From assembly GCA_021818475.1 (NCBI GenBank), contig JAKADZ010000002.1, forward strand, positions 64,536 through 128,535: a stretch of DNA of 64,000 nt, given 5' to 3'. The translations under genes were made by a program, and so were the position numbers. Shown here piece after piece: positions 1,021 through 64,000 of this stretch. The stretch comes from Nanobdellota archaeon (GTDB lineage Archaea; Nanobdellota; Nanobdellia; Pacearchaeales; GW2011-AR1). Below the pieces are notes generated by a model. The model made no database searches and had not been told where the DNA came from. It was given only the letters and a program-made list of their open reading frames with translations. Position 1 is the stretch's first letter. Each line of letters begins with the position of its first letter.

Positions 1021-1230
1021 TCTATCACCTCTTTTTTAAACAGTATTTGAAAATCAGTCATGAACAATATCTTAAAGGGAAAAACATATTAAAGAAAATC
1101 GATTAGGTGTTCTTTAGTTGAACCTTGCATTAAAATTTATCTCAATTAACAATTTTTCTTGACGGAGCGCCCTGACGAAGTCTGGCGCAGAGCGGTATTT
1201 ATTTCAAAAATTTCTGAAAGAAATTTTTGC
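1021..1230 (+). repeat. modular intergenic repeat, copy 1 (A motif, gattaggt module, attaacaattttt module, GC hairpin, D hairpin)
   Basis: tctatcacctctttttt at 1021-1037. ggagcgccctgacgaagtctggcgcagagc at 1164-1193. Perfect hairpin caaaaatttc-tgaaa-gaaatttttg at 1205-1229, identical to 21450-21474. Confidence 0.8.
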
Positions 1231-1250
1231 TATTTTATCTAAGAATAAAA

Positions 1251-1577
1251 TTAGCTTAATTTCATAATTGCATCAGCCAAATCGCCGGTTTCTTCAAGAG
1301 CTTTTTCTGCTTCTTTTTTTGAAGCGCCTGTTTTTTCCATAACGGTCTTAACATCTTCTTCAGAAAACTTTTCCCCCTCTTCTTCGGAAACATCACCGGA
1401 AATCTGGAAAGATTCCTGCCCCTGCATTTTTATCTTTACAACAGAAGGGTTGTTGATAACAATTTTACCGCCATCCTCTTTCTCGATTATAACTCTTGAA
1501 GAAGAAATTTCAGTTTGGTTTATCCCCATCTGCTTCATAACTGCCTGCATTTGTTTTGGATTAATTCCCGGAATCAT
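1251..1577 (-). CDS. nac: nascent polypeptide-associated complex protein (archaeal NAC, NAC + UBA-like C-terminus)
   Basis: 108 aa. Core is NPKQMQAVMKQMGI...IEKEDGGKIVINNPSVVKIKMQGQESFQISG. The C-terminus EEDVKTVMEKTGASKKEAEKALEETGDLADAIMKL is typical of archaeal NAC. Confidence 0.9.
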   Translation of the reverse strand: MIPGINPKQMQAVMKQMGINQTEISSSRVIIEKEDGGKIVINNPSVVKIKMQGQESFQISGDVSEEEGEKFSEEDVKTVMEKTGASKKEAEKALEETGDLADAIMKLS

Positions 1578-1606
1578 TTTATTTCATAGTATTTTTGTTT
1601 TTTAAA

Positions 1607-2482
1607 TTATCCTAACCTTTCCGCTATAATTCTGAATCTCAAATTATCTTCAATTTTGCTCTTGACAAAATCTTCAATATTTTTTCTTCCAGAATCCCTA
1701 AATCTAGAAAAATCAAGAACTTCAGAATTAGTCATTCTCAATAAAGAATAATTCAATCTCGGATTGCATTCAGAATGCTCTTCCTCCCTAATTTGTTCAA
1801 GGAGGTTATACATTTTTTTAGAATCAGAAAAGGATTTTTTCTGGGATAAAAGAAAATTGAGATACAGCAATCCAATAAATCCAAGCTCAAAACCGGAGGA
1901 AATATTCCTATTAAAAAAATTGAAAATTGAATAAGAAAATGATGCAAAAAGAATAAAATAATCCCTAATCTCTTTGGGAGCTTTAGTTAATGGGTATCTT
2001 TCTCCAAAATCAAGCGAATAAGCAAATGCTTCATGAGTAAGCCCAATTTTATTCATAAAAAAAGGGGAATACAGTTTAATTGCTCTATTCTCCCCCAACC
2101 TTGTTCTCACTGAGTGGATTAATTCATGTCTAAATATCTCTTTGTAACTATGATTAAAGAGTTCATAAGAAAGAATTTCATTTACTGAAACAATTGGAAT
2201 TCCTTGATTTTTATATCTTTTAACAGATGTTGTCCCCCCAGTTACCATTTTTCTACTCCAAGGAAGTTTAGCATAAGAACATGAAACCCAGTCAGGATAA
2301 GTCAAAAAATGCTTTTCAAAATCATCAAGTTCAGACGAAACTTCTATTTGATTTTTTCTTTTCGCTTTAAATTCATAAGCCGTATCTAAAAATCTATTTC
2401 CCCTTTCATAAAAATGAGTTTCATTTTCTCTAACCCTTGGAAGAACTCCTTTATGGTCAAGCTCGATTATTGATTGTTTCAT
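1607..2482 (-). CDS. hypothetical protein with HExxH (HELIH) zinc-metalloprotease-like motif and a hydrophobic region
   Basis: 291 aa. FRHELIHSVRT motif, with THEAFAY downstream. Hydrophobic stretch FILFASFSYSIFNFF...GFIGLLYLNFLL. Its start overlaps the stop of the upstream gene by 1 nt. Confidence 0.55.
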   Translation of the reverse strand: MKQSIIELDHKGVLPRVRENETHFYERGNRFLDTAYEFKAKRKNQIEVSSELDDFEKHFLTYPDWVSCSYAKLPWSRKMVTGGTTSVKRYKNQGIPIVSVNEILSYELFNHSYKEIFRHELIHSVRTRLGENRAIKLYSPFFMNKIGLTHEAFAYSLDFGERYPLTKAPKEIRDYFILFASFSYSIFNFFNRNISSGFELGFIGLLYLNFLLSQKKSFSDSKKMYNLLEQIREEEHSECNPRLNYSLLRMTNSEVLDFSRFRDSGRKNIEDFVKSKIEDNLRFRIIAERLG

Positions 2483-7290: not shown

Positions 7291-7414
7291 TTATTATCAG
7301 ACAACTTCCTCTGGGGGCGGGCGATTTCGCGAGGACAAATTTCGGTTGTGGAGGGGTGGATGGCGGAGGATAAAAAATCGAGCGAAGTCGCTAGTTGGGC
7401 GGAAAAAAGTCGCT
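7291..7414 (+). repeat. modular intergenic repeat, copy 2 (long GC-rich E module)
   Basis: ctgggggcgggcgatttcgcgagg ... atcgagcgaagtcgctagttgggcgg. Shares the gcgatttcgcg and agcg-a/g-gtcgc..agttggg-y-gg blocks with copies at 27866, 28345, 35061, 53407 and 58905. Confidence 0.8.
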
Positions 7415-14203: not shown

Positions 14204-14245
14204 AGTAAAATAAAAAAGAAAAAATAAATTAAGAAAAGCAAAATC

Positions 14246-14275
14246 TTACTTTTTCTTTTTCTTTTTAGCTGCCAT
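14246..14275 (-). CDS. micro-ORF MAAKKKKKK (9 aa) behind a perfect Shine-Dalgarno
   Basis: Minus strand reads AAGGAGGTGATTAGATA-ATG GCA GCT AAA AAG AAA AAG AAA AAG TAA. It is part of a 39-nt perfect repeat (14254-14292 = 14452-14490). Confidence 0.3.
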   Translation of the reverse strand: MAAKKKKKK

Positions 14276-14428
14276 TATCTAATCACCTCCTTATAGGATT
14301 ATTATTTTAATGAATAAGAGTATATTAATTTTTTGTTAATAAAAACATAATGAAACAAGAATAGAAGAAGTTTGTGGGGATTAAATCCCCAAATAAAAAA
14401 ATAAAAATAAAACTAAGTAAGACTCACC

Positions 14429-14473
14429 TTACTTTTTTTTCTTTTTTGCTGTCTTTTTCTTTTTAGCTGCCAT
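14429..14473 (-). CDS. micro-ORF MAAKKKKTAKKKKK (14 aa) behind a perfect Shine-Dalgarno
   Basis: Second copy of the same SD + ATG GCA GCT AAA AAG... unit. Confidence 0.3.
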   Translation of the reverse strand: MAAKKKKTAKKKKK

Positions 14474-14670
14474 TATCTAATCACCTCCTTGCTAATAGTA
14501 AAAATAATTTTAGGAAGTATTTAAATGTTATTCTTTTTTCAAATTTTTTTGAAAAAAATATTTTTAGATCAAAAAATTTGTCGTCGGAAAAATAAAAAAT
14601 AAAAATTTATGATAAAAAATAAAAAAAATTTTGCTAAAAAAATGAAAAAAATAATAAAAAATATCAAAAA

Positions 14671-17640: not shown

Positions 17641-17755
17641 TTTCTATCACCTCTTTTTCAGTCGAATTTAAAATATTAATAATTCTCACAGATTTTTCTC
17701 CAGTAATAATTTTTATCAGAAATTCTCCAGAGGATGGGCGGGTGGGAACGAGTTG
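17641..17755 (+). repeat. modular intergenic repeat, copy (A motif ... G-run module)
   Basis: ctatcacctcttttt at 17644-17658. About 50 nt are near-identical to 20543-20600 (tatcacctctttttca-n-tgaatttaaaatattaataa). gggcgggtggg at 17736-17746. Confidence 0.8.
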
Positions 17756-27559: not shown

Positions 27560-28204
27560 TTATATTTCCTCTTCCAACTTCTTAATTTTCATCCAGACTT
27601 TTTCAAACTTAGTGTTGGACTCATCAACGATTATTTTTAAAAAATTATCATCGACCAAAAGTTTTCCATCCTGAATTATTGGAAGTTCAATTTTTTCGCT
27701 TGCATTAAGTTCAACAATAAAATTTTTTTTAAGTTCAATAATTCCTGATTTTTTCCATCCCGCTAATTTTCCTTTTTCATAAATTTTTTCAGCATCTTCA
27801 AGTGTTTTGCATGCAATATGGAGAATGCACGGTTCGAATTTGAATTTAATATTTTTAATTCCCTTTTGGGTGGGCGAGCGATTTCGCGAAGGAAAGGTCA
27901 GTGACGAGTGAGCAGGGTCACGAGTTGGGTGGGAACTGGTTATAGAAATCAATTTTCCCAATTCATCTTTCAGTTCCTTAAATGAAATTTTATCGTGGGA
28001 AACAAAAACAAATAAGTTCTCTGCCTTTTTATCCTGGTCAATCATAAGTAAAACTCTTCCTGAACATGAAGAAGTGGTGTAATAATTTTCTAGAGAATTT
28101 ATCTTGTCGCATAAAGAAGAAATTTTCTCATCCCATTTTCCAATTGAAGATTTATCTTCTTTTGAGAGAATATCCTTTTTTCTCTGATTAAAATTGTCTT
28201 TCAT
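27560..28204 (-). CDS. taw3: tRNA wyosine-derivative methyltransferase Taw3/TYW3-like, carrying an in-frame repeat insertion
   Basis: NYYTTSSCSGRVLLM motif of the TYW3 family and ...FEPCILHIACKTLEDAEKIYEKGKLAGWKKSGI. Start placed at ATG 28204 (MKDNFNQRKK); the track ORF extends to 28297. Insert peptide is SHPTRDPAHSSLTFPSRNRSPTQKG. Confidence 0.75.
   Translation of the reverse strand: MKDNFNQRKKDILSKEDKSSIGKWDEKISSLCDKINSLENYYTTSSCSGRVLLMIDQDKKAENLFVFVSHDKISFKELKDELGKLISITSSHPTRDPAHSSLTFPSRNRSPTQKGIKNIKFKFEPCILHIACKTLEDAEKIYEKGKLAGWKKSGIIELKKNFIVELNASEKIELPIIQDGKLLVDDNFLKIIVDESNTKFEKVWMKIKKLEEEI
27862..27938 (+). repeat. GC-rich E module of the repeat family located inside the Taw3-like CDS
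   Basis: ccttttgggtgggcgagcgatttcgcgaaggaaaggtcagtgacgagtgagcagggtcacgagttgggtgggaact. ttgggtggg occurs at both ends (27866-27874 and 27925-27933). Confidence 0.9.
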
Positions 28205-28295: not shown

Positions 28296-28435
28296 AATCA
28301 ATCCAAAAAATTCTGAAAGAATTTTTTGCTCTCTTTCTTTTTTGAGTAGGCAAGCGATTTCGCTAATAGAAATTAATTTCCCTTCGGGTGGGAGGGCGGG
28401 GATTAATGAGCGGGGTCGCGAATTGGGGGGAATTA
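28296..28435 (+). repeat. modular intergenic repeat, copy (D hairpin variant + E module with G-quadruplex motif)
   Basis: caaaaaattc-tgaaa-gaattttttg at 28304-28328. gtaggcaagcgatttcgct... gggtgggagggcgggg at 28386-28401. aatgagcggggtcgcgaattgggggg. Confidence 0.85.
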
Positions 28436-33564: not shown

Positions 33565-34947
33565 TTATTCTCCTTTTCGACGACTTCCTGCCGTCGGGTT
33601 GCTGGAGTTGGGAAGAACCCGCTGGAGGTTAACCTTTTCAAAGCTTCTTGCAATCTGAAATAATTTTTGTTCGTTTAATTTTTCACAGATAATCTGCATT
33701 CCTATGGGGATTTTATCAATTTCCCCCGCAGGTATGCTGATAGCACAGTCCCCTGATAAATTAATGGGGGAAGTTAATGCATCATATTGGAACATTTCCT
33801 CAATTGAAATTTTCTCTCCGATTTTATGGGGAAGCCTTGGAACAGTCGGGCAGATTAAACAATCAAACTTCCTGAAAGTTTTTTTGAATTCTTCCTCAAT
33901 TAACTTCCTTGCTTTCAGAGCAAGATGATAATATCTTCCTGCATGTTCTGCCTTGCTTATTTCACTTCCACCCAAAATTCTTCTCAAAACTTCAGGTCCG
34001 CATGCTTCTTCAATTTTTTTCCCGAATCTTCTGCCATCAAGTCTTCTTGTACATGAAAAAAATTCAGTATAAACAATTGGAAAATAAGTTGCAACAGCAA
34101 AATCGATGTATTCTAATTTTATTTTTTCCGATTTCCACTTATATTTTTTAACAGTTTCCTCAATTTTTTTGTCAATTAAATTCTGAATTCGCAGGTCATT
34201 TATTTTAAAATCCAAAATTCCTATTTTAATATCTCGCGGAACTTCTTCAACTTCTTTGAGATTAATATTACTGCCCAAACTAATTGCATCTTTTTCATCT
34301 TTTCCTTTGATAATATCGAATAAAAGTGCGGCATCAGAAACATTTTTTGCAATCGGCCCGACCTGATCTAAACTCATGCTCATGTCAATTAAACCGTATC
34401 TTGAAACACTCCCGTAGCTTGGTTTTAATCCTACAACTCCGCAATGAGATGCAGGAACTCTTATGCTTCCGCCGGTATCGCTTCCTAAGGACATATCGCA
34501 AAAATCTGCAGAAACACTCGCGCAGCTTCCGGATGAACTTCCTCCCGCAACTAGTCCTAATGATTTTGGATTATTCGTCGCACCAAACGCAGAAGTTTCT
34601 CCGCTCCAGCCGCATGCAAATTCATCGCAGTTTGCCATTCCGATAATTAATCCGTCTTCCTCTTTTATTTTTTTTATAACTTCTGCATCGTAAGGAGATT
34701 TATAATTTTCCAAAACTTTGCTTCCGCATGATGCATGCAATCCAAGAACATTTATGTTAGCTTTAACAGCAATTATTTTTCCTGCAAGTTTTCCCGCTTT
34801 CTTTTTCTTGATTTTCTCATCAATCAGCTTCGCTTCTTCCATCGCATTAGGATTTATCTCAAGAATTGCATTTATTCTGTTTCCGCTTTTATTATGCATT
34901 TCAATCTGATTCAAGTATGTTTGAAGTCGTTCTTGTGTCGTTACCAT
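33565..34947 (-). CDS. gatA: Asp/Glu-tRNA amidotransferase subunit A
   Basis: 460 aa with the amidase signature (GGSSSGSCASV, ANCDEFACG, GSDTGGSIRVPAS). Confidence 0.92.
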   Translation of the reverse strand: MVTTQERLQTYLNQIEMHNKSGNRINAILEINPNAMEEAKLIDEKIKKKKAGKLAGKIIAVKANINVLGLHASCGSKVLENYKSPYDAEVIKKIKEEDGLIIGMANCDEFACGWSGETSAFGATNNPKSLGLVAGGSSSGSCASVSADFCDMSLGSDTGGSIRVPASHCGVVGLKPSYGSVSRYGLIDMSMSLDQVGPIAKNVSDAALLFDIIKGKDEKDAISLGSNINLKEVEEVPRDIKIGILDFKINDLRIQNLIDKKIEETVKKYKWKSEKIKLEYIDFAVATYFPIVYTEFFSCTRRLDGRRFGKKIEEACGPEVLRRILGGSEISKAEHAGRYYHLALKARKLIEEEFKKTFRKFDCLICPTVPRLPHKIGEKISIEEMFQYDALTSPINLSGDCAISIPAGEIDKIPIGMQIICEKLNEQKLFQIARSFEKVNLQRVLPNSSNPTAGSRRKGE

Positions 34948-35312
34948 TTCTTTTTCTCCGCAATTATAAAATCTTTATTTGCTTCTGGTGCATTTTCAAA
35001 CATTATTCTCTTGTCAAGTTCGCAGATTTTTGAAGTTTCGCGAATAGAATTATTTCCCCGTTGGGTGGGCGAGCGATTTCGCGAAGTTGAGGTCAGTGTT
35101 ATGTGAGCGGGGTCGGGAGTTGGGTGGGAATTAATGAGCGAAACAGAATTTTCTTCCCTTTCAAATTTTTCCCGTTCAATTGAATTATCAACTTCAATCT
35201 TTTGTTTAATCTGAGAAAGTTTCTTGGAGAAAGAATCAATTATAGAATCAACCTGTTTCTTTACTTCTTCCTTTTCTTTATCAGACATTTGTCGCCATAA
35301 AAAATCATCCAT
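34941..35312 (-). CDS. gatC: GatC-like amidotransferase subunit C carrying an in-frame repeat insertion
   Basis: Overlaps the gatA start by 7 nt. The C-terminus ...RIMFENAPEANKDFIIAEKK resembles the GatC L-x-N-A-P...F-x-V-P tail. Insert peptide is SHPTPDPAHITLTSTSRNRSPTQRG. Confidence 0.55.
   Translation of the reverse strand: MDDFLWRQMSDKEKEEVKKQVDSIIDSFSKKLSQIKQKIEVDNSIEREKFEREENSVSLINSHPTPDPAHITLTSTSRNRSPTQRGNNSIRETSKICELDKRIMFENAPEANKDFIIAEKKKW
35055..35140 (+). repeat. GC-rich E module of the repeat family located inside the GatC-like CDS
   Basis: tccccgttgggtgggcgagcgatttcgcgaagttgaggtcagtgttatgtgagcggggtcgggagttgggtgggaattaatgagcg. ttgggtggg occurs at 35061-35069 and 35120-35128, the same 59-nt spacing as in the Taw3 copy. 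Confidence 0.9.
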
Positions 35313-44228: not shown

Positions 44229-44625
44229 TTATCACCTCTTTTTTATTTAAGAAGTTGGATTTAATCTGTTTTATTTTGTTGGGATTTCATTTGAGTTTTT
44301 TCTCCTTAACAATTTTTCCGGCGTAGCGTCGTGTCTGAAAGCCGACACAAAGCAATCAATAATAAAAAAAGAAAGGATAAAATTTTTCTTCCCTCTTCGG
44401 ATGTGCGAGCGTTTGCACAAGTGATAACTTTCCTCTTGGGGCGGGGGCGGGAAGAAAATTCCCTTGAATATGAGAAACTTCGCGAGTAGAAACATTTTCC
44501 CTTCGGGCGTGAGGGGGGGAATAAATGAGCGAAGTCGCGAATGAAATTCTATTAAATAAATTTACTCCATAAAAAAATATTCCTTTGGGGAGGGCGGGTG
44601 GGAACGGGTAGAATAAGGCAAGAAA
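44229..44625 (+). repeat. largest cluster of the modular repeat (A motif, hairpin module, several E-type GC modules, G-quadruplex motif)
   Basis: ttatcacctctttttt at 44229-44244. gtgtc-tgaaagcc-gacac hairpin. gatgtgcgagcgtttgcac. ggggcgggggcggg at 44438-44451. aatgagcgaagtcgcgaatg. ggggagggcgggtggg at 44587-44602. Confidence 0.85.
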
Positions 44626-45009: not shown

Positions 45010-45079
45010 GGCCTCACGTTCGCTCGACCTAATTCATCTTTTTCAAATCCGAATTAAACCCAAGAGTTCAATTCAAATA

Positions 45080-45135
45080 GATTAATTTTGTTTTCAACAT
45101 CAGGCTTGACCACAAATTCAAGGGGAAAATGAGTG
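45080..45135 (+). repeat. repeat-family fragment between tRNA-Arg and its duplicated 3' end
   Basis: gattaattttgttttcaacatcaggcttgaccacaaattcaaggggaaaatgagtg is collinear with 58862-58911 (gattaggttgtcttcaacaggcttgaccacactttcaaggggaaaatgtgtg). Confidence 0.8.
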
Positions 45136-45164
45136 TAAAGAAACCGTGTAGGTTTCGTTCATTA

Positions 45165-45236
45165 TGAGCCCACGAGGAATTGAACCCCGATCAACCGGTC
45201 CGAAGCCGATTGTTCTATCCGTTAAACTATGGGCCC
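45165..45236 (-). tRNA. tRNA-Arg (anticodon UCG)
   Basis: Manual fold, 72 nt: acceptor GGGCCCA/UGGGCUC, D arm GUUU-AACGGAUA-GAAC, anticodon arm AUCGG-CUUCGGA-CCGGU, variable UGAU, T arm CGGGG-UUCAAUU-CCUCG, discriminator A. CCA is not encoded. Confidence 0.9.
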
Positions 45237-45286
45237 ATAAAAAGTAGAGGAATAAGGTTTTTATATGTTATTTGCATACTAAAAAA

Positions 45287-46150
45287 ATGGCATTAAAGAG
45301 GCATCACAAAATAATTATCGGTGGAGTCAGTTTTTTGGTAATTTTATTCATGATAACGAGCACTCTTTTTATGTATATGATTTTTACTAAACAAACAACA
45401 GATTATAATGAATTAAATCAAAAAATAATAAATCTCCAGACTGATACTCAGACAAAATTCAACAGTGTCTCAGATAATTTAAGAAGCCTCGAAAATCAGT
45501 CTCAATACCTCGGTTCACAGTTTGGTTCATTGGATACAGAAATGACAAAGTTAAAAGCTTCCACAAGTTCAGATTTCTCTGGGATAATAGACAATGCAGT
45601 TAAATCTGTAGTCACAATAAAAACTGATTTAGGCCAGGGTTCTGGTTTTGTAATTGCCAATGGAGGTTATGTTGTTACAAATGAACATGTTATGGAAGGG
45701 GCAACAGCTGCAGTGATAATAACTTATGATGGGAAACAGCACCGTGTTGCAATAATCAATGATGATCCAACAATGGATATTGCATTATTAAAAATGGATG
45801 ATACTAGTTATCCTTCCTTAGAATTAGGAGATTCTGATACAGTTCAGGTAGGGGAAAAAGTAATTGCGATAGGAAATCCTCTTGGGCTGCAATTCTCTGT
45901 ATCTGAAGGAATAGTTTCTGCAGTTCATAGAGAAGGAGAAAACCAATTGGATGCATATATCCAGACTGATGCATCGCTAAATCCTGGAAATTCCGGTGGT
46001 CCGTTGATAGATGTAAATGGCAAAGTGATAGGTATAAATAACTTCAAATTAAGCAATAGCGAGAATATAGGATTTGCGCTCGAATCAAATTATATTAAAA
46101 GTACGGTTAATAATCTTGCACAGAAATCCTTGGGACAAACATTAATATAA
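45287..46150 (+). CDS. membrane-anchored trypsin-like serine protease (HtrA/S1C-like, no obvious PDZ)
   Basis: ATG at 45287; the track ORF starts at TTG 45272. N-terminal TM. GSGFVIANGGYVVTNEHV (His), DIALLK (Asp), GNSGGPL (Ser). Confidence 0.85.
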   Translation: MALKRHHKIIIGGVSFLVILFMITSTLFMYMIFTKQTTDYNELNQKIINLQTDTQTKFNSVSDNLRSLENQSQYLGSQFGSLDTEMTKLKASTSSDFSGIIDNAVKSVVTIKTDLGQGSGFVIANGGYVVTNEHVMEGATAAVIITYDGKQHRVAIINDDPTMDIALLKMDDTSYPSLELGDSDTVQVGEKVIAIGNPLGLQFSVSEGIVSAVHREGENQLDAYIQTDASLNPGNSGGPLIDVNGKVIGINNFKLSNSENIGFALESNYIKSTVNNLAQKSLGQTLI

Positions 46151-47196: not shown

Positions 47197-48639
47197 ATGG
47201 AAAAATCTCAGGAAGGATTAACTGTAAAGAAAGATGAAAATTTCAGTGAATGGTATACGCAATTGATAGAAAAAGCAGAGCTAGCTGATCTAAGGTATAA
47301 CATTAAAGGATTCTTAGTATTCCAACCTTGGTCTGTACTTTCTATGGAGAAGATGTTTTCTTCAATGGAAAAAGTTTTACAAAGAAAGGGGCATTCTCCT
47401 TATTTCTTTCCAACACTAATTCCAGAAAATAATTTAAAAAAAGAGAGTTCACACATTAAAGGATTCACACCCGAAGTATTTTGGGTAACTCAGGGAGGGG
47501 ATAATGTTCTTGAAGAAAAATTTGCTTTAAGACCCACAAGTGAAACTGCATTTTATCAAATGTTTTCTTTGTGGATTAGAAGTTATAAAGAATTACCATT
47601 TAAAACTTATCAAAGAGCAAATATATTTAGACATGAAACAAAAGCAACACGTCCATTTTTAAGAAGTAGAGAATTTCATTGGATTGAAACACATTGTGCT
47701 CATGCTTCAAAAGAAGATGCAATGTCTCAAGTGAAAGAAGATATGGAAACCACAAAAGAAGTTTTACATGATATTTTTGGATTACCTTTTATGTTTTTTG
47801 AAAGACCTTCTTGGGATAAATTTCCTGGAGCAGAAAAAACTTTTGCAGCAGATGTTTTAAATCCAGACGGGAAAGTTGTTCAGCAACCCTCAACTCATAT
47901 TTTAAAACAAGAATTTCCAAGAGCGTTTGGAGTAACATTTAAAGATAAAAATGGAGAAGAAAAAACAGTTTGGACAACCTGTTATGGTCCAGCGATATCA
48001 AGAATATTCGCAAGTGTGATGATTGTTCATGGAGATGACAAGGGATTAAAATTTCCTTGGGATATTGCTCCATTGCAAGTTGTAATTATCCCAATAAATG
48101 AAGAAGTAAAACAAAAAGCGGAAAAATTAAAATTAGAAATAGAAAAATTCGCTTCTGTAAAAATTGACTATTCAGATAAGCGCCCAGGAGAAAAATTCAA
48201 TTATTGGGAAATGAAAGGGGTTCCAATAAGAATAGATTTAGGATTGAAAGATTTGGAAAATAAAAAAATAACTGTATTTAGAAGAGACTTAGATAAAAAA
48301 GAAGTTGTTAGTGAATCCGAACTTATTAAAAAAATAAAAAAAATTTCAGAAGAAATAACAAAAAATTTAACAAAGAAAGCAGATAATCTTTTCAATAATA
48401 AAATAAAAGATGCAAAAAATATTAAAGAAATTAAAAAAATAATAGAGGAGGGAGGAATTGCAAGATGCAATTTTTGCTCTGTAGAAAAAGAGGGAGAAAA
48501 ATGTGCAGAAATAATCGAAAAAGAAACAGGAGCCCAAGTGAGGGGAACAAAATTAGATGAAAAACAAAAACCAAACGGAAAATGTGCAATATGTGGAAAA
48601 CCTGCTCATAACATAGTTTATATTGCTAAATCATATTAA
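47197..48639 (+). CDS. proS: proline--tRNA ligase (archaeal/eukaryotic type)
   Basis: 480 aa. FSEWYTQLIEKAEL start, motif 2 IFRHETKATRPFLRSREF, class IIa anticodon-binding domain (APLQVVIIPI) and a C-terminal Cys cluster ending ...YIAKSY. Confidence 0.92.
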   Translation: MEKSQEGLTVKKDENFSEWYTQLIEKAELADLRYNIKGFLVFQPWSVLSMEKMFSSMEKVLQRKGHSPYFFPTLIPENNLKKESSHIKGFTPEVFWVTQGGDNVLEEKFALRPTSETAFYQMFSLWIRSYKELPFKTYQRANIFRHETKATRPFLRSREFHWIETHCAHASKEDAMSQVKEDMETTKEVLHDIFGLPFMFFERPSWDKFPGAEKTFAADVLNPDGKVVQQPSTHILKQEFPRAFGVTFKDKNGEEKTVWTTCYGPAISRIFASVMIVHGDDKGLKFPWDIAPLQVVIIPINEEVKQKAEKLKLEIEKFASVKIDYSDKRPGEKFNYWEMKGVPIRIDLGLKDLENKKITVFRRDLDKKEVVSESELIKKIKKISEEITKNLTKKADNLFNNKIKDAKNIKEIKKIIEEGGIARCNFCSVEKEGEKCAEIIEKETGAQVRGTKLDEKQKPNGKCAICGKPAHNIVYIAKSY

Positions 48640-48727: not shown

Positions 48728-50164
48728 ATGACTTTCCAACTTAATCCAACAATATCATTAATTTTTTTGGGTTCACTTACCCTAATAACAGTAGGGTTAA
48801 TTCTTTTACTTTCTAAAAAATATAAAAATAATTTAGACAACTTTTTAGTTTCAGGAAGAAATATTAGTGGGGTTACGGGTGCATTTTCCGTTGCAGTAAC
48901 ATGGGTCTGGGCTCCAGCATTGTTAGTTTCTTCACAACAAGCATTTGAGAAAGGGCTACCTGGAGCTTTTTGGTTCATAATTCCTAACACATTAGCTTTA
49001 ATCTTAATTGGAACACTTATTAGTAAATTAAAAAAAAGGATGCCTAAAGGATTTACCCTTCCTCAATTTATAAAAGAGAATTTAGGGAAAAAGAATCATA
49101 TTTTATACATTAGCATCATATTGTTAGTACAAATATACTCAATTATTATTCATCTAACTGCAATATTATTAATCTTGTCTCCTCTATTAAATATAAGTAA
49201 AACAAGTATAATGATAATTCTTGCAATGATATTTTTATTGCTTGCATCAATAAGGGGAATTAGGTCTTCTTTCTTTTCAGATTGGGTTAAATTTATTTTT
49301 ATATTTATTATCGTTTTATTTATAGTTCCCTTAACCATCTACTTATCAGGAGGATTATCATCTATCTTAGGGGGAATAGGAGGAACAAGTGGAAAATTTA
49401 CAAATATTTTTGATTGGAGTGTATTCTTAACATTTGGAATTGCAATTAGTATTTCATTATTATCAGGGGCAACAATTGACCAACAATTATGGCAAAGAGC
49501 ATTTTCTATAAAAGAGGGGAAAGAAAAAAAAGCGTTTTACATTGGAGCAATTCTTTTCTTTTTAATCCCCTTACTTTTATCTTTATTAGGGTTTATTGCA
49601 GCAAACAAAACTTTAAATTTATCTATTTTAAATAGCCAATTAGCAGGATATGATGTAATCTTAAATTATCTTCCAAATGTACTAATATTAATTTTTATAT
49701 CTTCCTTAATGATAAGTTTATTTGCTGCGGGAGCTTCAGCATTATGTGCAGCGAGTTCTGTTTTCACCATAGACATTTATTCAACATATATTAATTCAAA
49801 AGCGTCAGAAAAGAAAAAATTATTTGTTGGTAGAAGTTCTATGATCTTAATACTTCTTCTTGGGATGATGATTGCATTTATTCCAAATATTCAAATTGTG
49901 TACTTAGTTCTATTAATAGGTTCTATACGAGGAGCATTGCTTATTCCAACTATTGTTGCCATTTATAAAGAAAAAATCTCAAGCAAATATTTTTTTATAA
50001 GTTCAGTTTTAGGAATCTTATTTGGATTACCCTTATTCATTTTAGGGACAATTGTCAAAAATCCAATTTTATCCAGCATTGGTGCTCTCCTTTCAGTAGG
50101 GATTAGCTCGATAATAATATTAATTTCTTTAAAATTAAAAAAATATTCAAATAAATATGGTTAA
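48728..50164 (+). CDS. sodium:solute symporter family transporter
   Basis: 478 aa, about 13 TM. FLVSGRNISGVTGAFSVAVTWVWAPALLVSSQQAFEKGLPGAFWF is typical of the SSS family N-terminal region. Substrate unknown. Confidence 0.8.
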   Translation: MTFQLNPTISLIFLGSLTLITVGLILLLSKKYKNNLDNFLVSGRNISGVTGAFSVAVTWVWAPALLVSSQQAFEKGLPGAFWFIIPNTLALILIGTLISKLKKRMPKGFTLPQFIKENLGKKNHILYISIILLVQIYSIIIHLTAILLILSPLLNISKTSIMIILAMIFLLLASIRGIRSSFFSDWVKFIFIFIIVLFIVPLTIYLSGGLSSILGGIGGTSGKFTNIFDWSVFLTFGIAISISLLSGATIDQQLWQRAFSIKEGKEKKAFYIGAILFFLIPLLLSLLGFIAANKTLNLSILNSQLAGYDVILNYLPNVLILIFISSLMISLFAAGASALCAASSVFTIDIYSTYINSKASEKKKLFVGRSSMILILLLGMMIAFIPNIQIVYLVLLIGSIRGALLIPTIVAIYKEKISSKYFFISSVLGILFGLPLFILGTIVKNPILSSIGALLSVGISSIIILISLKLKKYSNKYG

Positions 50165-51533
50165 TTATTCCACATTTTTAAAATTATTAAAGGAAGCGGG
50201 AATATTGGATTATACCTATCCAGTAAGGGGAGATATTGTTTGGTTACCTTATGGAGTCAAATTAATGCAATTATTTAAAGAAAATATAATCTCTTTAATA
50301 GAAAAAGAAGGGTATGAAGGATACGACTTCCCAATTCTCATGCAAGGAAACTATTTAAGACAAGTAAGTAAAAAGGTTAGTAATTTTTTAGATAATGTTT
50401 TTTGGATAAAAGATAAAGATTTATTTATTAAACCAACAGGAGAATATTCAATATACCCTATGTTCCATAGATGGATTAAAACTCAAAAAGATTTACCCCT
50501 CCGGATATATCAAATAGGATCTTTTTTTAGGCCAATTAAAAATTGTGATAAATTATTTAACCTTCAAGAAAGGCATTATTTTTTTGAAGGTCATGTTGCA
50601 ACAAAAAATGAAAAAGAATGTGAAGAAGAATTTAACAAAGCAAAAAAAATTAATGAGAATATTTTTAGGTTATTAGCAATCCCCGTTCTAAAATCAGAAA
50701 GACCTTTATCTACTAATAAACCGGTTTCCAAAAAGACAATAGGATATGATACATTGTTATATATAAATAAAACCTTGCAAGTAGGGGCAGTTTACCTACA
50801 GTCAGATATTCATTCGAAAATGTTTGATATAAAATTTACTGATAAAGACAATCAAAAAAAATATACCCATCAGATAACTTGGGGATCCTCAGAACGTTTA
50901 GTATTTGCTAGTCTTATGAGTACTATAATAAATGGAGAATTAAATATTATTCCAAGAATTGCTCCTTATCAGATAGTAATCATTCCTATAATAAAAAGGG
51001 GAAAATTTAAAGAAATTAACTCTTTTTGCGAAAAATTAAATAAAAAAATTATTTCTTCAGGATTCAGAAGTTATATAGACTATTCAGATATACCTATCGG
51101 AAAAAAATTTCATGAATGGGGGGTAAAAGGAATTCCATTAAGAATCGATATTGGAGAAAAAGAGATTAAAGAAAAAAAGTTTTCAATATACTCGAAATAT
51201 CTAGAAGTTAAGGAAAAGTATTCATTTAATGAATTATCTTCCTCAAGAATAAACCAATTCTTAAATAAGATAGAAGAAAATATGATCAAAACAAATGAAG
51301 AAAATTTTAAAAAAAAGATAAAAACTATACAATCCATTAAAGGAATAAAAGAGAAACAGAAGGATTATCCTATTTTAAAATTTCCATTAGATTATGATAA
51401 CTCTTTAGTTAAGGAGATTGAAAAAGATTATTCTGGAGAGATACTAGGTTTTGAAAAAAATATTTCAGAAGAGAAATGCATTTTTACGGGTAAATTAACC
51501 AATTATTTAGTTTATTTTTCTAGAAGAATATAA
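50157..51533 (+). CDS. divergent ProRS paralog (class IIa aaRS-like, degenerate catalytic motifs)
   Basis: 458 aa, collinear with ProRS: WLPYGVKLMQLF, IKPTGEYSIYPMF, LPLRIYQIGSFFRP, ITWGSSERLVF, APYQIVIIPI. It lacks the motif-2 Glu, the C-terminal Cys cluster and the terminal Tyr. Its start overlaps the transporter stop by 8 nt. Confidence 0.7.
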   Translation: MVNYSTFLKLLKEAGILDYTYPVRGDIVWLPYGVKLMQLFKENIISLIEKEGYEGYDFPILMQGNYLRQVSKKVSNFLDNVFWIKDKDLFIKPTGEYSIYPMFHRWIKTQKDLPLRIYQIGSFFRPIKNCDKLFNLQERHYFFEGHVATKNEKECEEEFNKAKKINENIFRLLAIPVLKSERPLSTNKPVSKKTIGYDTLLYINKTLQVGAVYLQSDIHSKMFDIKFTDKDNQKKYTHQITWGSSERLVFASLMSTIINGELNIIPRIAPYQIVIIPIIKRGKFKEINSFCEKLNKKIISSGFRSYIDYSDIPIGKKFHEWGVKGIPLRIDIGEKEIKEKKFSIYSKYLEVKEKYSFNELSSSRINQFLNKIEENMIKTNEENFKKKIKTIQSIKGIKEKQKDYPILKFPLDYDNSLVKEIEKDYSGEILGFEKNISEEKCIFTGKLTNYLVYFSRRI

Positions 51534-53325: not shown

Positions 53326-53485
53326 TTATCGCCTCTTTTTTAAAACATATTTGCAGTTAATTCTAATTAACCAACAGATTTTTCCCTCATTAACAAATTT
53401 TCCCTCGGGGGTGGGCGAGAGTTTTCGCAATGCCAGTAAATTTTTGAATGCATTTGCGAGGGCTCGAGTTGGGCGGGAACAAGTA
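53326..53485 (+). repeat. modular intergenic repeat, copy (A-motif variant, attaacaaatttt module, long E module)
   Basis: ttatcgcctcttttt at 53326-53340. gggggtgggcgagagttttcgcaatg...tttgcgagggctcgagttgggcgggaac at 53407-53480. Confidence 0.8.
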
Positions 53486-58360: not shown

Positions 58361-58391
58361 CTTTTTCCCTCAGGGTGGGCGGGTGGGACTG
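58361..58391 (+). repeat. repeat-family fragment: short E module = G-quadruplex motif
   Basis: ctttttccctcagggtgggcgggtgggactg, with gggtgggcgggtggg at 58373-58387. Confidence 0.75.
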
Positions 58392-58680: not shown

Positions 58681-58682
58681 TC

Positions 58683-58992
58683 AGGCTTAACCAAAAAGGA
58701 AAACGGGTTAGATTATTTTAGTTAGTTCAAACACAAATTCAGGAAAGTTTAAACAAAAATTTAAGGAATTTCTTTATTAACAAATTTCCAAACAGAGCGC
58801 CTTGACGAATGTCTGGCGCGAAGCAATCAACATCAAAATTTCAGGGAAATTTTTAAGAAAGGATTAGGTTGTCTTCAACAGGCTTGACCACACTTTCAAG
58901 GGGAAAATGTGTGCGAGCGATTTCGCGGAAGTGAGGCCAGTGATATGCAAGCGAGGTCGCGAGTTGAGAAAACCGATTAGGTTGTCTTCAAC
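58683..58992 (+). repeat. modular intergenic repeat cluster (GC hairpin module, D hairpin variant, gattaggt module twice, long E module)
   Basis: agagcgccttgacgaatgtctggcgcgaagc. aaaatttc-agg-gaaatttt at 58835-58853. gattaggttgtcttcaac at 58862-58879 and again at 58975-58992. gtgtgcgagcgatttcgcggaagtgaggccagtgatatgcaagcgaggtcgcgagttgag. Confidence 0.85.
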
Positions 58993-62100: not shown

Positions 62101-62110
62101 TTTTTAAAAT
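62101..62110 (+). promoter_or_regulatory. TATA-box-like element upstream of alaS
   Basis: tttttaaaat lies 20-29 nt upstream of the ATG at 62130. Confidence 0.35.
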
Positions 62111-62129
62111 ACTTCTTCCTGAATTTTGT

Positions 62130-63827
62130 ATGGACAGAAAAGAATTAATAAAAAAATTCATTGATTTTTTCAAATCAAAGGGGCACAGGGAAATTCAGAA
62201 TTCCAGTCTGATTCCGGAAAATGATCCAACTGTTCTGTTTACAACTGCAGGAATGCATCCTCTTGTCCCATATCTCCTTGGCCAAAAACATCCCCAGGGA
62301 AAACTTTTGGTAAATGTTCAGAAATGCGTCAGAACAGATGATATAGATGAAGTCGGAGATGAAACACACCACACATTTTTTGAGATGATGGGGGATTGGA
62401 GTCTTGGAGATTATTTTAAGGAGGGGGCAATTACGAACTCATTTGAATTTCTGACTAAAATATTAAAAATCCCGAAAGAGAAAATTTCAGTAACTTGTTT
62501 TGAGGGGGATAAAGATGCCCCAAGAGATGATGAATCTGCAGAAATCTGGAAAAAATTAAGTATAAACAAAATAAAATTCCTCCCAAAAAAAGATAACTGG
62601 TGGGGGCCGGCAGGAAAAACAGGACCTTGCGGGCCTGATACAGAAATGTTTGTGAACAATGTTGAAATATGGAATGATGTTTTCATGCAGTACAATAAAA
62701 CCGAAGAAGGAAAATTCTCCCCTCTCGCTCAAAAAAATGTTGATACCGGAATGGGTGTTGAAAGAACACTTGCAATTCTTAATAAGTTAGATGATAATTA
62801 TCTTACAGACTGTTTTCTTCCGATAATAAATTCAATTGAAAAGGAATCAGACAAAACATACGGAAAAAATGAAAAAGATACAAAGGCAATGAGAATTATT
62901 GCAGACCACATTAAAGCATCAATTTTTATTTTGGGAGACGGGATTGTCCCTGGAAATAAAGAGCAAGGCTACATTTTAAGAAGATTGATAAGAAGAGCAA
63001 TACGGTACGCAAAAGATTTAGGGGAAAAATTTTCCGTTGAGGAAGTAGCAAAACCAGTTTTTGAAATTTACTCGGACTATGAACATTTAAAGAAAAATAA
63101 AAATAAGATTCTGGATGAATTAAAGAGGGAAGAAATTAAATTTCTGGAGACTCTTGAAAAAGGGATGAATATCTTCGAAAAATTAACAAAGGGCAAAAAA
63201 GAAATTGACTGCAAAGATGCTTTCCTTTTATATCAGAGTTATGGATTTCCTGTAGAAATGATTGAAGAAGAATGCAAAAAAAGGAAGATAAAATTCTCTA
63301 TAGAAAAATTTGAAAAAGAGTGCAAAGTTCATCAGGAACTTTCACGGACAGCAACTGCAGGAAAATTTAAATCAGGCCTGGCAGATGAATCATTGCAAAC
63401 AACAAAATTGCACACTGCTTCGCATTTGCTTTTAGCAGCATTAAGAATCGTATTAAAAGATAAAGAAATTATTCAAAAAGGAAGTAATATAACTCCGGAG
63501 AGATTAAGATTGGATTTTAATTTCCCGAGAAAACTTACCGATGAAGAAATCAAAAAAACAGAAGATTTAGTTAATAAGCAAATTCAAAAATCTTGTGAAG
63601 TTATAAGGCAGGAAATGCCAATCAAAGAAGCAAAAGAAAAAGGAGCAAGGGGTTCATTTGATTCAAAATACGGAGAAAATGTTTCAGTTTATACGGTAGA
63701 AGATTTCTCCAAAGAGATTTGCGCAGGCCCTCATGTAAAAAATACTTGTGAACTTGGACATTTCAAAATATTAAAAGAAGAATCTTCTTCATCAGGAGTC
63801 AGGAGAATTAAAGCAGTTGTGGAATAA
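62130..63827 (+). CDS. alaS: alanine--tRNA ligase, compact bacterial-like form (no C-Ala domain)
   Basis: 565 aa. FFKSKGHREIQNSSLIPENDPTVLFTTAGMHPLVPY, QKCVRTDDIDEVGDETHHTFFEMMGDWSLGDYFK, GPCGPDTEMF, VDTGMGVERT and RIIADHIKA. Editing-site HTASHLL and CAGPHV. Ends GVRRIKAVVE. Confidence 0.88.
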   Translation: MDRKELIKKFIDFFKSKGHREIQNSSLIPENDPTVLFTTAGMHPLVPYLLGQKHPQGKLLVNVQKCVRTDDIDEVGDETHHTFFEMMGDWSLGDYFKEGAITNSFEFLTKILKIPKEKISVTCFEGDKDAPRDDESAEIWKKLSINKIKFLPKKDNWWGPAGKTGPCGPDTEMFVNNVEIWNDVFMQYNKTEEGKFSPLAQKNVDTGMGVERTLAILNKLDDNYLTDCFLPIINSIEKESDKTYGKNEKDTKAMRIIADHIKASIFILGDGIVPGNKEQGYILRRLIRRAIRYAKDLGEKFSVEEVAKPVFEIYSDYEHLKKNKNKILDELKREEIKFLETLEKGMNIFEKLTKGKKEIDCKDAFLLYQSYGFPVEMIEEECKKRKIKFSIEKFEKECKVHQELSRTATAGKFKSGLADESLQTTKLHTASHLLLAALRIVLKDKEIIQKGSNITPERLRLDFNFPRKLTDEEIKKTEDLVNKQIQKSCEVIRQEMPIKEAKEKGARGSFDSKYGENVSVYTVEDFSKEICAGPHVKNTCELGHFKILKEESSSSGVRRIKAVVE

Positions 63828-63836
63828 TATTAGTTT

Positions 63837-64000
63837 TTATCAATTCTTTTTGGGTTGGGTTAAACTTAAGGTTAAAGCCCGCCAGAATTTACTTCATTAA
63901 CAATTTTTCTCGGAAATTTTTTCTTCACGCGAACTAAGTGAGTGTGCGACGGAAAATTCCTGTTTCCAGTCTTCGAAGGCAGGAAAAATTTTATTAATCC
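63837..64000 (+). repeat. modular intergenic repeat, copy (A-motif variant, attaacaattttt module, GC modules), cut by the window end
   Basis: ttatcaattcttttt at 63837-63851, 10 nt after the alaS stop. cattaacaatttttctc. cacgcgaactaagtgagtgtgcgacgg. Inverted repeat ttcctg...caggaa. Confidence 0.7.

Follow-up and report, generated by a model that had tools for sequence, protein, structure and literature searches.

Strand-polarised repeat modules in a Pacearchaeota-type archaeon, some lying in frame within genes, as a probable family of selfish insertion elements

The DNA analysed here, a stretch of 64,000 nucleotides that we call the window, belongs to a Pacearchaeota-type (DPANN) archaeon with a tiny AT-rich genome of 33% GC. 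Scattered along it, at about one locus per 4-5 kb, are short repeats that an earlier note had described as GC-rich, intergenic copies of one ordered element, variably truncated and all in (+) orientation. The layout A...N-H-D-G/E is visible in our alignment (A2), but the repeats are a toolkit of partly independent modules and not one ordered element with truncations. The toolkit comprises motifs A, N, B and C, a GC hairpin with a GAA loop (H), an AT hairpin (D), G-tract modules and the E element. The description as GC-rich held for the H, G-tract and E sub-modules and failed for the blocks 1021-1230 (31% GC), 17641-17755 (34%) and 20543-20645 (23%). The G-tract module (TTYCC-N-GGGNGGGNGGGNGGGAA) is by its sequence capable of forming a G-quadruplex (G4). 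E measures 57-87 nt and reads GGGTGGG-CGAGCGATTTCGCGA-variable-GAGCGGGGTCGCGAGTT-GGGTGGG, a pair of G-tracts split by two direct GAGCG-N3-TCGCGA boxes around a variable core of 15-30 nt. In H and D, pairing is kept by compensatory changes across copies.

Unless stated otherwise, the features lie on the + strand; D copies are palindromic and their orientation is undefinable. Motif A (CTATCACCTCTTTTT; 1022..1036) forms the left edge of a composite A...B'-N-H-D, which continues with a B-like motif (GATTAGGTGTTCTTTAGTTGAAC; 1101..1123), read from the sequence and compared with the B repeats, and with motif N (TTAACAATTTTTC; 1146..1158), A and N being placed by motif count and alignment. It ends in the H hairpin GAGCGCC-CTGAC-GAA-GTC-TGGCGC-AGAGC (1165..1193; DNA fold z=-3.1, compensatory changes) and the D hairpin CAAAAATTTC-TGAAA-GAAATTTTTG (1205..1229; blastn, fold, compensatory comparison). 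A degenerate E with a G-rich interior lies between two minus-strand genes (7313..7405; nhmmer E=3.4e-6), and at 11022..11057 fold and hairpin comparison gave the GAA-loop hairpin GGACAGC-GAA-GCTGTCC, then the G4 motif GGGCGGGAGGGCAGGGG. Motif A recurs 27 nt past the stop of a + gene (17644..17658; motif count), ahead of a G-tract module found as a sequence motif (GGATGGGCGGGTGGG; 17732..17746), and once more with its spacer at 20543..20610, which is 81% identical to 17645-17712 (blastn E=2e-12). A variant of N (TTAACAACTTCTC; 21390..21402; alignment) precedes a long hairpin, GGAAATTTTTCCT...AGGAAAAATTTC, and a D hairpin (21450-21474), both within 21403..21474 (DNA fold z=-3.8), and the G4 motif GGGGCGGGTGGGCCGGG (21489..21505; G4 motif count). 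Four nt past the CDC48 stop codon lies another motif A (27408..27422; motif count), followed by an H copy with a degenerate left arm (27483..27512; blastn, fold, alignment) and a D copy (27523..27547; blastn, fold). On the far side of the minus-strand gene TYW3 (27560..28204) are a D copy with a compensatory A/T swap (28304..28328; blastn, hairpin comparison) and an E with a nested G4 module at 28386-28401 (28342..28432; nhmmer).

Past the GatB stop, 44229..44353 holds motif A (44229-44243), N (44306-44318) and an H-like hairpin (44320-44353), identified by motif counts and alignment, and 44397..44602 combines clustered, degenerate E halves with G-tract modules at 44438-44451, 44506-44520 and 44587-44602 (blastn, nhmmer). 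Adjoining tRNA-Arg is a B'-C-B'' unit with no E core (45080..45160; blastn 82% over 51 nt), the 'empty' version of 58862..58992, in which 18-bp perfect direct repeats of B (58862-58879, 58975-58992) surround C (58879-58909) and an E core without G-tracts (58909-58968; motifs, nhmmer); the B-C-B unit occurs both with and without the E core. The remaining features are a motif A with one mismatch (53326..53340; motif count), motif N then E (53390..53480; nhmmer E=5.9e-13), a G4 motif whose loops are 1 nt long, between divergent genes (GGGTGGGCGGGTGGG; 58373..58387; G4 motif count), a C-like motif with N (58777-58789), an H hairpin (58795-58824) and a D-like hairpin (58835-58853) in 58682..58853 (motifs, fold, hairpin comparison), and a degenerate motif A with N (63897-63909) and hairpin-rich sequence in 63837..64000 (blastn, motif count).

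The repeat family is genuine and confined to one strand. When the 16 listed blocks were searched against the window by sensitive blastn, 48 plus/plus pairs emerged, and every significant pairwise match was +/+. Thus 27866-27935 paired with 35061-35130 (86% over 70 nt, E=2e-18), 17645-17712 with 20544-20610, 28359-28423 with 44479-44542, and 45085-45135 with 58863-58913. Ten minus matches stem from the palindromic D hairpin, matching itself or another copy, or from low-complexity AT sequence. Within the window, GGGBGGG was counted 22 times on the + and twice on the - strand versus 3.7 expected, both minus matches being isolated Gly/Trp codons within genes and not elements. Motif A (TATCACCTCTTTTT, at most one mismatch) was counted 6/0 versus 0.10 expected and canonical G4 motifs 6/0 versus 0.035, while motif N alone was weakly above chance (10 versus 6 expected). 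A profile of E in nhmmer recovered six strong and two weak copies, all on the + strand. Therefore, the single orientation reported earlier is borne out, and it extends 9.5 kb upstream of the window. The modules cluster and nest in spacers, with uneven spacing.

Their most telling property, missed by a description as an intergenic ordered mosaic, is in-frame insertion into housekeeping genes together with presence/absence polymorphism. The repeats are not purely intergenic: block 27862-27938 falls inside TYW3 and block 35055-35140 inside a 123-aa ORF adjoining the amidase gene. Both contain an E that is in frame and antisense to its host gene, at 27859..27935 (TTCCC-TTTT-GGGTGGG...GGGTGGGAA; nhmmer E=8.5e-18) and 35054..35130 (nhmmer E=8e-17). 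TYW3 has 214 aa, versus about 186 aa in most homologues among the 120 matches listed, and its insert of 81 nt (about 28 aa) is missing from the closest empty orthologue among those matches (L031, 86% identity). The whole 343-nt spacer 28205-28547 is missing from this relative too, in which the Lactamase_B stop and the TYW3 start overlap. In an AF2 model, the insert is a coil with pLDDT<50 between well-folded elements. The 123-aa ORF (34941..35312, minus strand; ORF call, orthologues) encodes a small protein without a Pfam match, and its 3' end overlaps the amidase (GatA) start; from gene position, we would guess that the product is GatC-like. It carries an insert of about 37 aa that is absent from three orthologues of 83-102 aa. 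Conversely, another relative (L032) has a G-tract module downstream of TYW3 that the window lacks. Since close orthologues lack the inserts, these are polymorphic insertions. Their boundaries are approximate because the orthologues in the empty/filled comparisons are all at least 6-14% diverged, and neither a target-site duplication nor a conserved target sequence was definable from these comparisons and the E copies.

In relatives, E was found in long ORFs which, judged by sequence, resemble Cbf5 (with an intein), PEP synthase (PpsA), GatA and deoxyhypusine synthase; between them, the copies cover four frames and either orientation. In the deoxyhypusine-synthase-like ORF, it occupies one shared site in two contigs, in different frames. 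Repeated insertion at one loop of TYW3 or deoxyhypusine synthase could be a single ancient insertion that later diverged, instead of repeated mobility. Modules probably persist in proteins because the conserved ends of E have a stop codon in none of the six frames and its total length is a multiple of three (14 of 16 copies). E with conserved ends occurs in about ten Pacearchaeota/Woesearchaeota assemblies, Nanoarchaeia assemblies also carry the conserved ends, and interior sub-families are common to all three groups.

The orientation of the elements is set by the chromosome strand and not by neighbouring genes. In the window, AT3 was +0.157 in + genes versus -0.017 in - genes (p=4e-6), uniformly across all four quarters, and the G-rich strand of the elements is the one with A>T at third codon positions. 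The same sign was obtained at 8 of 8 relative loci, at L041 and at three loci of JAQTLT010000001.1; at every element-bearing relative locus examined, the G-rich strand was the A>T third-position strand. A block of 22 kb and 11 genes is inverted between the window and JAQTLT010000001.1, and after the inversion elements and skew lie on one chromosome strand in both genomes. AT3 of the orthologues in this block shifts with strand by about 0.18 on average, a direction followed by 8 of 10 gene pairs. The asymmetry, the relatives and the inversion thus support the core of the original proposal, that is, strand-specific insertion or a link to replication direction. The third-position asymmetry is presumably replicative, and independent loci together with the block inversion suggest that element orientation flips at the origin or terminus. 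A>T (and C>G) at synonymous sites is the composition usual for the lagging strand. Assignment of the element strand to leading or lagging is uncertain because the GC3 component reaches -0.18 solely in other relatives; its value for the window and for JAQTLT010000001.1 is about 0.

On balance, the modules probably constitute a new family of selfish, non-autonomous, strand-asymmetric insertion modules that take their orientation from replication. They would build up where harm is small, in convergent and other intergenic spacers and in protein surface loops, with the G-rich face on the strand that has A>T (in most relatives also C>G) at synonymous sites. The polarity may arise by insertion through single-stranded DNA at the replication fork, of IS200/IS605 type or by oligonucleotide annealing, and/or by purging of wrong-orientation copies of the G4-forming strand. 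Pfam scans of called genes found no transposase, integrase, Y1/HUH or reverse transcriptase gene in the window or its flanks, as the earlier note had stated of transposases and integrases for the window.

The elements might instead be cis-acting polar signals of host replication or segregation, kept co-oriented with replication by selection, such as sites where primase prefers to start on the AT-rich template of the lagging strand, sites of polar fork pausing or KOPS/Chi-like orienting sequences, acting through the G-rich modules or their C-rich complements. Strict polarity tied to strand asymmetry and restored after inversion would fit such a role, as would the density of loci, the conservation of E ends across distant genomes, and two relatives of the same gene order that are almost element-free and likewise lack strand asymmetry. 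Polar G-rich oligomers, KOPS (GGGNAGGG) among them, provide an established precedent; like the present elements, KOPS, Chi and architecture-imparting sequences are frequent, rich in G and found almost only on one strand relative to replication. However, all of these oligomers are 5-8-mers that form part of ordinary sequence, are conserved host signals and occupy the G-rich leading strand, whereas the present elements are modular inserts of 25-400 nt on the A>T (often C>G) strand, of lagging-type composition. Copies are polymorphic in close relatives and missing from related genomes of the same gene order, disordered inserts interrupt the reading frames of conserved enzymes, modules cluster and nest instead of being evenly spaced, and their variety fits poorly with a single recognition site. 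We therefore consider a host signal unlikely.

Small structured RNA genes or RNA-level elements transcribed from the + strand, like hgc RNAs or C/D-box sRNAs, are very unlikely. The elements resemble these in being GC-rich islands in an AT-rich archaeal genome; the preserved pairing of H and D and the GTGATGA-like and k-turn-like strings of one E sub-family point the same way. However, the two richest regions had no Rfam match at gathering threshold or E<=5, E folded no better than shuffled sequence (z=-0.9 and +0.45), and mismatches in its only possible long-range stem were uncompensated (alignment A3). Moreover, copies are polymorphic, and those within coding genes are in frame, occur in either orientation and keep lengths in multiples of three; some 16 RNA genes on one strand irrespective of context would have no known precedent.

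Ordinary gene-expression signals (terminators, 3'-UTR or promoter elements), with motif A as a 3'-end signal and D as a bidirectional terminator, are highly improbable. Motif A resembles the 3' end of 16S rRNA and follows the stop codon of five + genes by 1-27 nt; D is a hairpin then a T-run located in convergent spacers, and all large convergent spacers except 14204-14670 carry modules. The compensatory conservation of H and D is also compatible with a host function such as transcription termination. Nevertheless, no minus-strand gene, of about 36, is accompanied by motif A, H or a G-tract module oriented as the gene is, two copies of motif A precede genes on the minus strand, relatives have different orthologous spacers or none, and the block inversion leaves the elements reversed relative to the same genes. 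Chance low-complexity similarity or a contig-confined assembly artefact, in favour of which stand the AT-richness of some listed blocks, the near-chance count of motif N and the breaking of other assemblies about 200 nt past AlaRS, at the 63.8-kb repeat, is refuted by pairwise E-values down to 1e-19, motif counts 6- to 170-fold over shuffles, the identical sequence in several independent ENA assemblies and the presence of E in unrelated sequencing projects and genomes.

As probable selfish insertion modules, the elements can be compared with several known systems. Rickettsia palindromic elements (RPE), reportedly described by Ogata et al. in 2000, are said to occupy spacers and also conserved protein-coding genes, which they enter in frame, contributing a peptide that is tolerated. 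Like E, they are short non-autonomous repeats without an encoded transposase, found in a host-dependent microbe whose genome is reduced and AT-rich, and E shares both kinds of location. RPE differ in being bacterial palindromes of 100-150 bp predicted to form one long stem-loop, whereas E is archaeal, 57-87 nt long, non-palindromic, G-rich on one strand, G4-capable and strictly chromosome-polarised; the two share no sequence similarity.

Elements of the IS200/IS605 and REP/BIME-RAYT types, to which strand specificity had led the earlier note, are likewise asymmetric, without terminal inverted repeats, and form mosaic clusters in spacers. The orientation bias of IS200/IS608 has been explained via lagging-strand single-stranded DNA (PMC3971601). 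Their hairpins are recognised on one strand, and the two direct, imperfectly palindromic boxes of E resemble left- and right-end hairpins. However, these palindromes form stems of only 3-4 bp, E lacks both a conserved 5' target tetranucleotide and a GTAG/CGTC tag (cf. PMC3733652), inverted REP pairs do not occur, in-frame residence in genes is atypical of both groups, and about 250 kb of sequence yielded no gene for TnpA (Y1), TnpB or RAYT. Membership in the IS200/IS605, REP/RAYT or MITE families is therefore not supported.

Yeast mitochondrial GC clusters are modular, shuffled into new combinations and regarded as mobile, and are mostly intergenic with optional in-frame inserts in var1 (PMC8811140). 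Like the present modules, they are small GC-rich elements of a genome that is otherwise very AT-rich. They differ in being organellar and palindromic, with AG/TAG terminal repeats taken as target-site duplications, whereas the modules described here showed no target duplication and are strand-asymmetric, with an orientation that tracks a replication-type skew.

Sensitive blastn of the 16 blocks listed in an earlier note against the window returned 48 plus/plus pairs, among them 27866-27935 with 35061-35130 (86%, E=2e-18), 17645-17712 with 20544-20610 (81%), 28359-28423 with 44479-44542 (82%), 45085-45135 with 58863-58913 (82%) and 21436-21482 with 28290-28336 (87%). The same search gave 10 minus pairs, which come from AT low-complexity sequence or from the palindromic D hairpin matching itself or another copy. 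Motif counts in the window were far over chance and favoured one strand: GGGBGGG was found 22 times on + and twice on - (3.7 expected), motif A (TATCACCTCTTTTT, at most one mismatch) six times on + and never on - (0.10 expected), and canonical G4 motifs at six loci on + and none on - (0.035 expected). The two minus-strand GGGBGGG matches are isolated Gly/Trp codons and not elements, and the + polarity extends 9.5 kb upstream of the window. These results bear out the earlier note in its claim that all copies that can be oriented share one orientation. Since the same sequence is present, identical, in several independent ENA metagenome assemblies, an assembly artefact, which had also been considered, is ruled out.

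An alignment of nine composites gave the + strand order of the modules as motif A, variable spacer, motif N, H hairpin, D hairpin, pyrimidine tract, and G-tract or E. The order proposed earlier is visible in this alignment. Motif N by itself is barely above its chance count, and the description of the blocks as GC-rich had to be given up for several of them. H, a GC hairpin, closes its loop with an invariant C-GAA-G and has GAGCG...AGAGC flanks; across its copies in the window and in two other genomes, 5/6 stem pairs show compensatory changes, and its DNA fold has a z of about -3. H hairpins are longer than the stems of the E boxes and occur singly. D is an AT hairpin, CAAAAATTTC-TGAAA-GAAATTTTTG, with both sides changed at 4/11 pairs, and D and H may double as terminators. 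The G module typically reads TTYCCYT-NN-GGGNGGGNGGGNGGGAA, and its sequence GGGTGGGCGGGTGGG has loops of 1 nt; quadruplexes with such loops are the most stable class of parallel quadruplex. E reads GGGTGGG-C-GAGCGATTTCGCGA-A-(15-30 nt variable)-GAGCGGGGTCGCGA-GTT-GGGTGGG. Here the central loop of a G module has given way to a variable core between two direct copies of a 14-nt box, a layout compatible with two-plus-two G-tracts separated by a long central loop. The canonical motifs at the six + loci (four runs of at least 3 G, loops of 1-7 nt) are predicted from sequence to form quadruplexes. As single-stranded DNA, E folds no better than shuffled sequence, and a palindromic or REP-like nature was rejected on this ground; its only possible long-range stem has mismatches without compensation (alignment A3). 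At locus 58862-58992, E lacks the G-tracts, adjoins motif C and is bracketed by a perfect 18-bp direct repeat. Locus 45080-45160 shares this B-C-B frame but has no E.

Motif A, TATCACCTC followed by T5-6, starts at window positions 1022, 17644, 20543, 27408, 44229 and 53326. It resembles the 16S rRNA 3' end, and its complement is a perfect Shine-Dalgarno sequence with no start codon after it. A role as Shine-Dalgarno sequence of minus-strand genes (reverse complement AAAAAGAGGTGATA) was rejected, as none of the copies is followed by a start codon and five of them directly adjoin + genes at the 3' end. At L015, a locus of a relative, an A-like motif is opposite to E in orientation.

The family had been called intergenic, which is not the case for two of the listed copies. 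Both are E copies, antisense and in frame: 27859-27935 is inside TYW3, and 35054-35130 is in a 123-aa ORF overlapping the start of the amidase (GatA) gene. For both in-frame copies there are orthologues that lack them. The TYW3 of the window has 214 aa versus about 186 aa in most of 120 homologues among the matches listed, and the extra 28 residues are the translation of E. In the closest TYW3 orthologue without the insert among these matches, that of relative L031 (86% identity), 81 nt are missing at the insert point; the entire 343-nt spacer 28205-28547 is missing as well, with the Lactamase_B stop overlapping the start of TYW3. A 94% identical relative (L032) does carry E in its TYW3, but the spacers on either side hold other modules. 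The ~37-aa insert of the small ORF is missing from its orthologues, which have 83-102 aa. In the AlphaFold model, the TYW3 insert is a coil with pLDDT<50 between a helix and a strand otherwise above 90, and the same loop holds different proline-rich inserts in many other homologues; in relative L041 the loop insert is a GAA hairpin plus G-tract.

In relatives, E was also found in long ORFs whose sequences resemble Cbf5 (with intein), PEP synthase (PpsA), PP-loop ATPase, GatA and deoxyhypusine synthase, the last with E at the same site in two contigs and in differing frames. The Cbf5-like case is an 883-aa ORF (L028, 1072-3723, -) with an N-terminal part like this pseudouridine synthase, an apparent intein-like insertion and an apparent in-frame E near the C-terminus. 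Within ORFs, E copies run sense or antisense to the gene and use four reading frames. Copy length is a multiple of three in 14/16 copies (estimated p about 1e-5 if the copies are independent, about 1e-3 with sub-families collapsed), and the conserved ends of the consensus, read directly, are stop-free in all six frames; lengths and frames point to translation of in-gene E. No element polymorphisms were found among the loci of near-identical strains (L001, L002, L034-L037, L046), which differ by an indel of 63 nt in a tandem repeat, by another of ~40 nt near 21.9 kb and by an alternative C-terminus of the topoisomerase. The comparison with relatives shows that E is a polymorphic insertion, in genes too.

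In order to tell chromosome-strand from coding-strand effects, we used the A-versus-T (AT3) and G-versus-C (GC3) skews at third codon positions. In the window, AT3 was +0.157 in + genes and -0.017 in - genes (Mann-Whitney p=4e-6), a contrast uniform across the four quarters, and GC3 did not differ between + and - genes. Therefore, the + strand, which carries the G-rich face of every element, has A>T whatever the gene direction. When eight independent loci of relatives were oriented by their elements, AT3 was positive in co-oriented and negative in anti-oriented genes in 8/8, with pooled values of +0.199 versus -0.155 for AT3 and +0.034 versus +0.389 for GC3. The same AT3 behaviour was observed at L041 and at three loci of the 447-kb contig JAQTLT010000001.1, which are all neighbours (at 352-431 kb). 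A profile search found no locus with E copies on both strands.

The contig JAQTLT010000001.1 also carries an inversion: a block of 11 genes that runs from eRF1 to CDC48 (5.8-27.4 kb in the window, 353.8-373.5 kb in the contig) is inverted relative to the block from TYW3 to AlaRS. The right-hand boundary of the inverted block in the window is the convergent CDC48/TYW3 spacer, which is full of modules. In both genomes the elements of both blocks are on one chromosome strand, so that with respect to the same genes their direction is reversed. Between orthologues of the inverted block, AT3 differs by about 0.18 on average with the strand occupied, and the direction held in 8/10 gene pairs. Elements and AT3 skew thus follow the chromosome strand, also after inversion, and the polarity is a property of that strand. 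This agrees with the earlier suggestion that orientation is tied to replication or to strand-specific insertion. Replication is the only process known to us with such symmetry, and we infer from the independent loci and the inversion, rather than from a switch seen at an origin or terminus, that the polarity is of replication type. In bacterial and archaeal skews, A>T with C>G is the composition usual on the lagging strand, and A>T together with C>G was seen in most relatives. The G4-forming strand would then belong to the template of the leading strand and its C-rich complement to that of the lagging strand. This assignment is tentative, since both the window and JAQTLT010000001.1 have a GC3 component of about zero.

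Exact-pattern scans located E in four DPANN genomes from the GTDB set and in seven metagenome contigs at 28-35% GC, its ends being nearly invariant, and interior sub-families of E are common to different assemblies. The 19-mer scan of genome contigs gave 4 true DPANN matches and 17 chance matches in GC-rich bacteria. Scans of IMG/VR for viral copies yielded no true copies, and a viral origin was rejected, the two matches being chance ones in GC-rich contigs. Two relatives of the same gene order, L038 (a 782-kb contig, ERZ25039477) and L040 (CAYHEN010000007.1), have almost no copies; therefore, the expansion is lineage-specific. These two also lack third-position strand asymmetry (AT3 0.07 versus 0.11 in one and 0.02 versus 0.09 in the other), and across lineages the elements and the skew seem to go together. 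A search of the literature on DPANN archaea found no prior description of such repeats.

The comparisons establish insertion, polymorphism, in-frame tolerance, spread and a polarity of replication type. We read the modules as selfish, non-autonomous insertions whose polarity would come from insertion via single-stranded DNA at the fork, for which IS200/IS608 is a precedent (PMC3971601), and/or from orientation-dependent loss of G4-forming copies. As the earlier note had stated, no transposase or integrase gene is present among the called genes of the window; with the flanks included, there was no transposase, integrase, reverse transcriptase or Y1 (HUH) TnpA among the called genes. Among 13 E copies, the 2-6 nt upstream have no target consensus in common, and no target-site duplication was found at E copies or in the filled/empty comparison.

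The more exciting reading, if true, is that the modules are not only parasites and serve as polar, cis-acting parts of chromosome replication in minimal archaea. In one version, the C-rich complement on the lagging-strand template would provide preferred, GC-stable primase start sites; in another, the G4 plus hairpin would be a direction-dependent fork signal; in a third, the replication machinery itself would write the copies by incorporating a G-rich primer or oligonucleotide in the lagging strand, with no transposase. Any of them would explain the strict polarity, the joint occurrence of elements and strong strand asymmetry in some lineages and the lack of both in the two relatives of the same gene order. 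However, copies are polymorphic between relatives, absent from related genomes and present as disordered inserts in enzymes, which disfavours host replication signals, and we consider this reading improbable in any version. Readings of the modules as RNA genes or gene-expression signals fail on the in-gene copies, the lack of a minus-strand counterpart and the reversal relative to genes after inversion; in addition, no module matched an Rfam family, only two tRNAs in the window passing the gathering threshold of Rfam 15 and nothing besides tRNA appearing at E<=5 in 27350-28600 and 44150-45300, the two regions richest in modules. A bulge-helix-bulge intron (helix, 3-nt bulge, 4-bp helix and 3-nt bulge from paired ends, with the element sense to the host RNA) was rejected, since both flanks are the same G-tract and unable to pair, copies are both sense and antisense in genes, and copy lengths are multiples of three.

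The window has a GC content of 32.8% and carries archaeal housekeeping genes (CDC48/VAT, GatD/GatE, archaeal ProRS, TFIIS, TFIIE-alpha, proteasome, topoisomerase I and a 565-aa AlaRS); homologues of its proteins with a named source are assigned to Candidatus Pacearchaeota, Nanoarchaeia or Woesearchaeota. The AlaRS (62130-63827, +) consists of the catalytic domain plus SAD. Its homologues have 561-595 aa in 120/120 of the matches listed and, therefore, the lineage of the window has a short or split AlaRS, for which Nanoarchaeum is known. The AlaRS gene plus ~200 nt, inside the repeat-rich spacer 63828-64000, is where contigs end in other assemblies of the same organism, which suggests that the modules break short-read assemblies. 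A 94-nt tRNA at 21573-21666 (-), matched by Rfam and missed by ARAGORN, probably contains an intron. Its 5' end (AACCAGGCTGAGCTACGGAGTCAT on the + strand) has two further copies upstream, of the first ~24 nt at 21743-21766 and of the first ~15 nt at 21850-21864, which look like scars of integration at the tRNA or partial duplications. Gene 29258-30268 has an internal tandem 132-nt duplication (29700-29936), in which the window and assembly L001 differ by 63 nt, and the neighbouring 722-aa beta-propeller/PQQ-like gene (30330-32498) is built of roughly 111-144-nt repeats. At the topoisomerase I 3' end (~14750), strain L046, otherwise 99.95-100% identical, has ~98 extra nt, which change the zinc-ribbon region at the C-terminus. 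There are two ProRS-like genes (47197-48639 and 50157-51533) at a distance of 1.5 kb, the second a weak match to the ProRS C-terminal domain.

Some of the smallest cellular genomes are those of DPANN archaea, on whose replication we know of no experimental work. The repeat family is a sequence marker of chromosome strand polarity on any contig, which could help to find origins and termini in uncultured Pacearchaeota and Woesearchaeota. By linking G-quadruplex-capable DNA to replication orientation, it is also a natural system for separating insertion bias from orientation-dependent G4 toxicity. For annotation it is a warning, as the elements probably break assemblies, add 20-40 residues to proteins and create spurious ORFs.

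We class the repeats with a known kind, small non-autonomous selfish repeats, in which they combine three unusual features: an asymmetry of G-quadruplex type, residence in frame within archaeal housekeeping genes and a nearly absolute polarity that is tied to a strand asymmetry of replication type. Miniature IS200/IS605 elements carry at either end, on one and the same strand, a sub-terminal imperfect palindrome whose stem has roughly 8-12 bp. E has two direct copies of GAGCG-N3-TCGCGA, each of which can form a stem of only 3-4 bp. IS200/IS605 elements insert 3' of a conserved tetra- or pentanucleotide, a consensus that E copies lack; the missing target duplication is compatible with them, and their replication-linked orientation bias is shared by the E family. 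REP/BIME sequences with RAYT are 20-40 bp imperfect palindromes with a GTAG or CGTC tag and frequently form inverted pairs (REPIN/BIME). Here there is no such tag, neither E nor the G module is palindromic, every copy that can be oriented is direct, and the inverted matches in the window are only the self-palindromic D hairpins. MITEs have TIRs of at least 10 bp and a duplication of fixed length; here there is only TTCCC...GGGAA (5 bp) in some window copies, the 18-bp direct repeat 58862/58975 is a single case, and no MITE-type duplication was found. The link to IS200/IS605 or REP/RAYT drawn earlier, like membership of the MITE families, is therefore not supported, because no mobility gene was found among the called genes of the window and flanks and no target duplication or conserved target could be defined, although the E family may work similarly. 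Rickettsia RPEs (RPE-1 to RPE-8) are long palindromic stem-loops and, as here, in-frame inserts in conserved genes that are absent from orthologues; E, in contrast, is not palindromic, and its host is an archaeon. Besides RPEs, the closest behavioural analogue is the yeast mitochondrial GC cluster, which occurs also as an optional in-frame insert in var1 (PMC8811140). The family described here is thus an archaeal parallel to both, with selfish repeats in frame within essential genes, and the likeness suggests convergent evolution in AT-rich reduced genomes.
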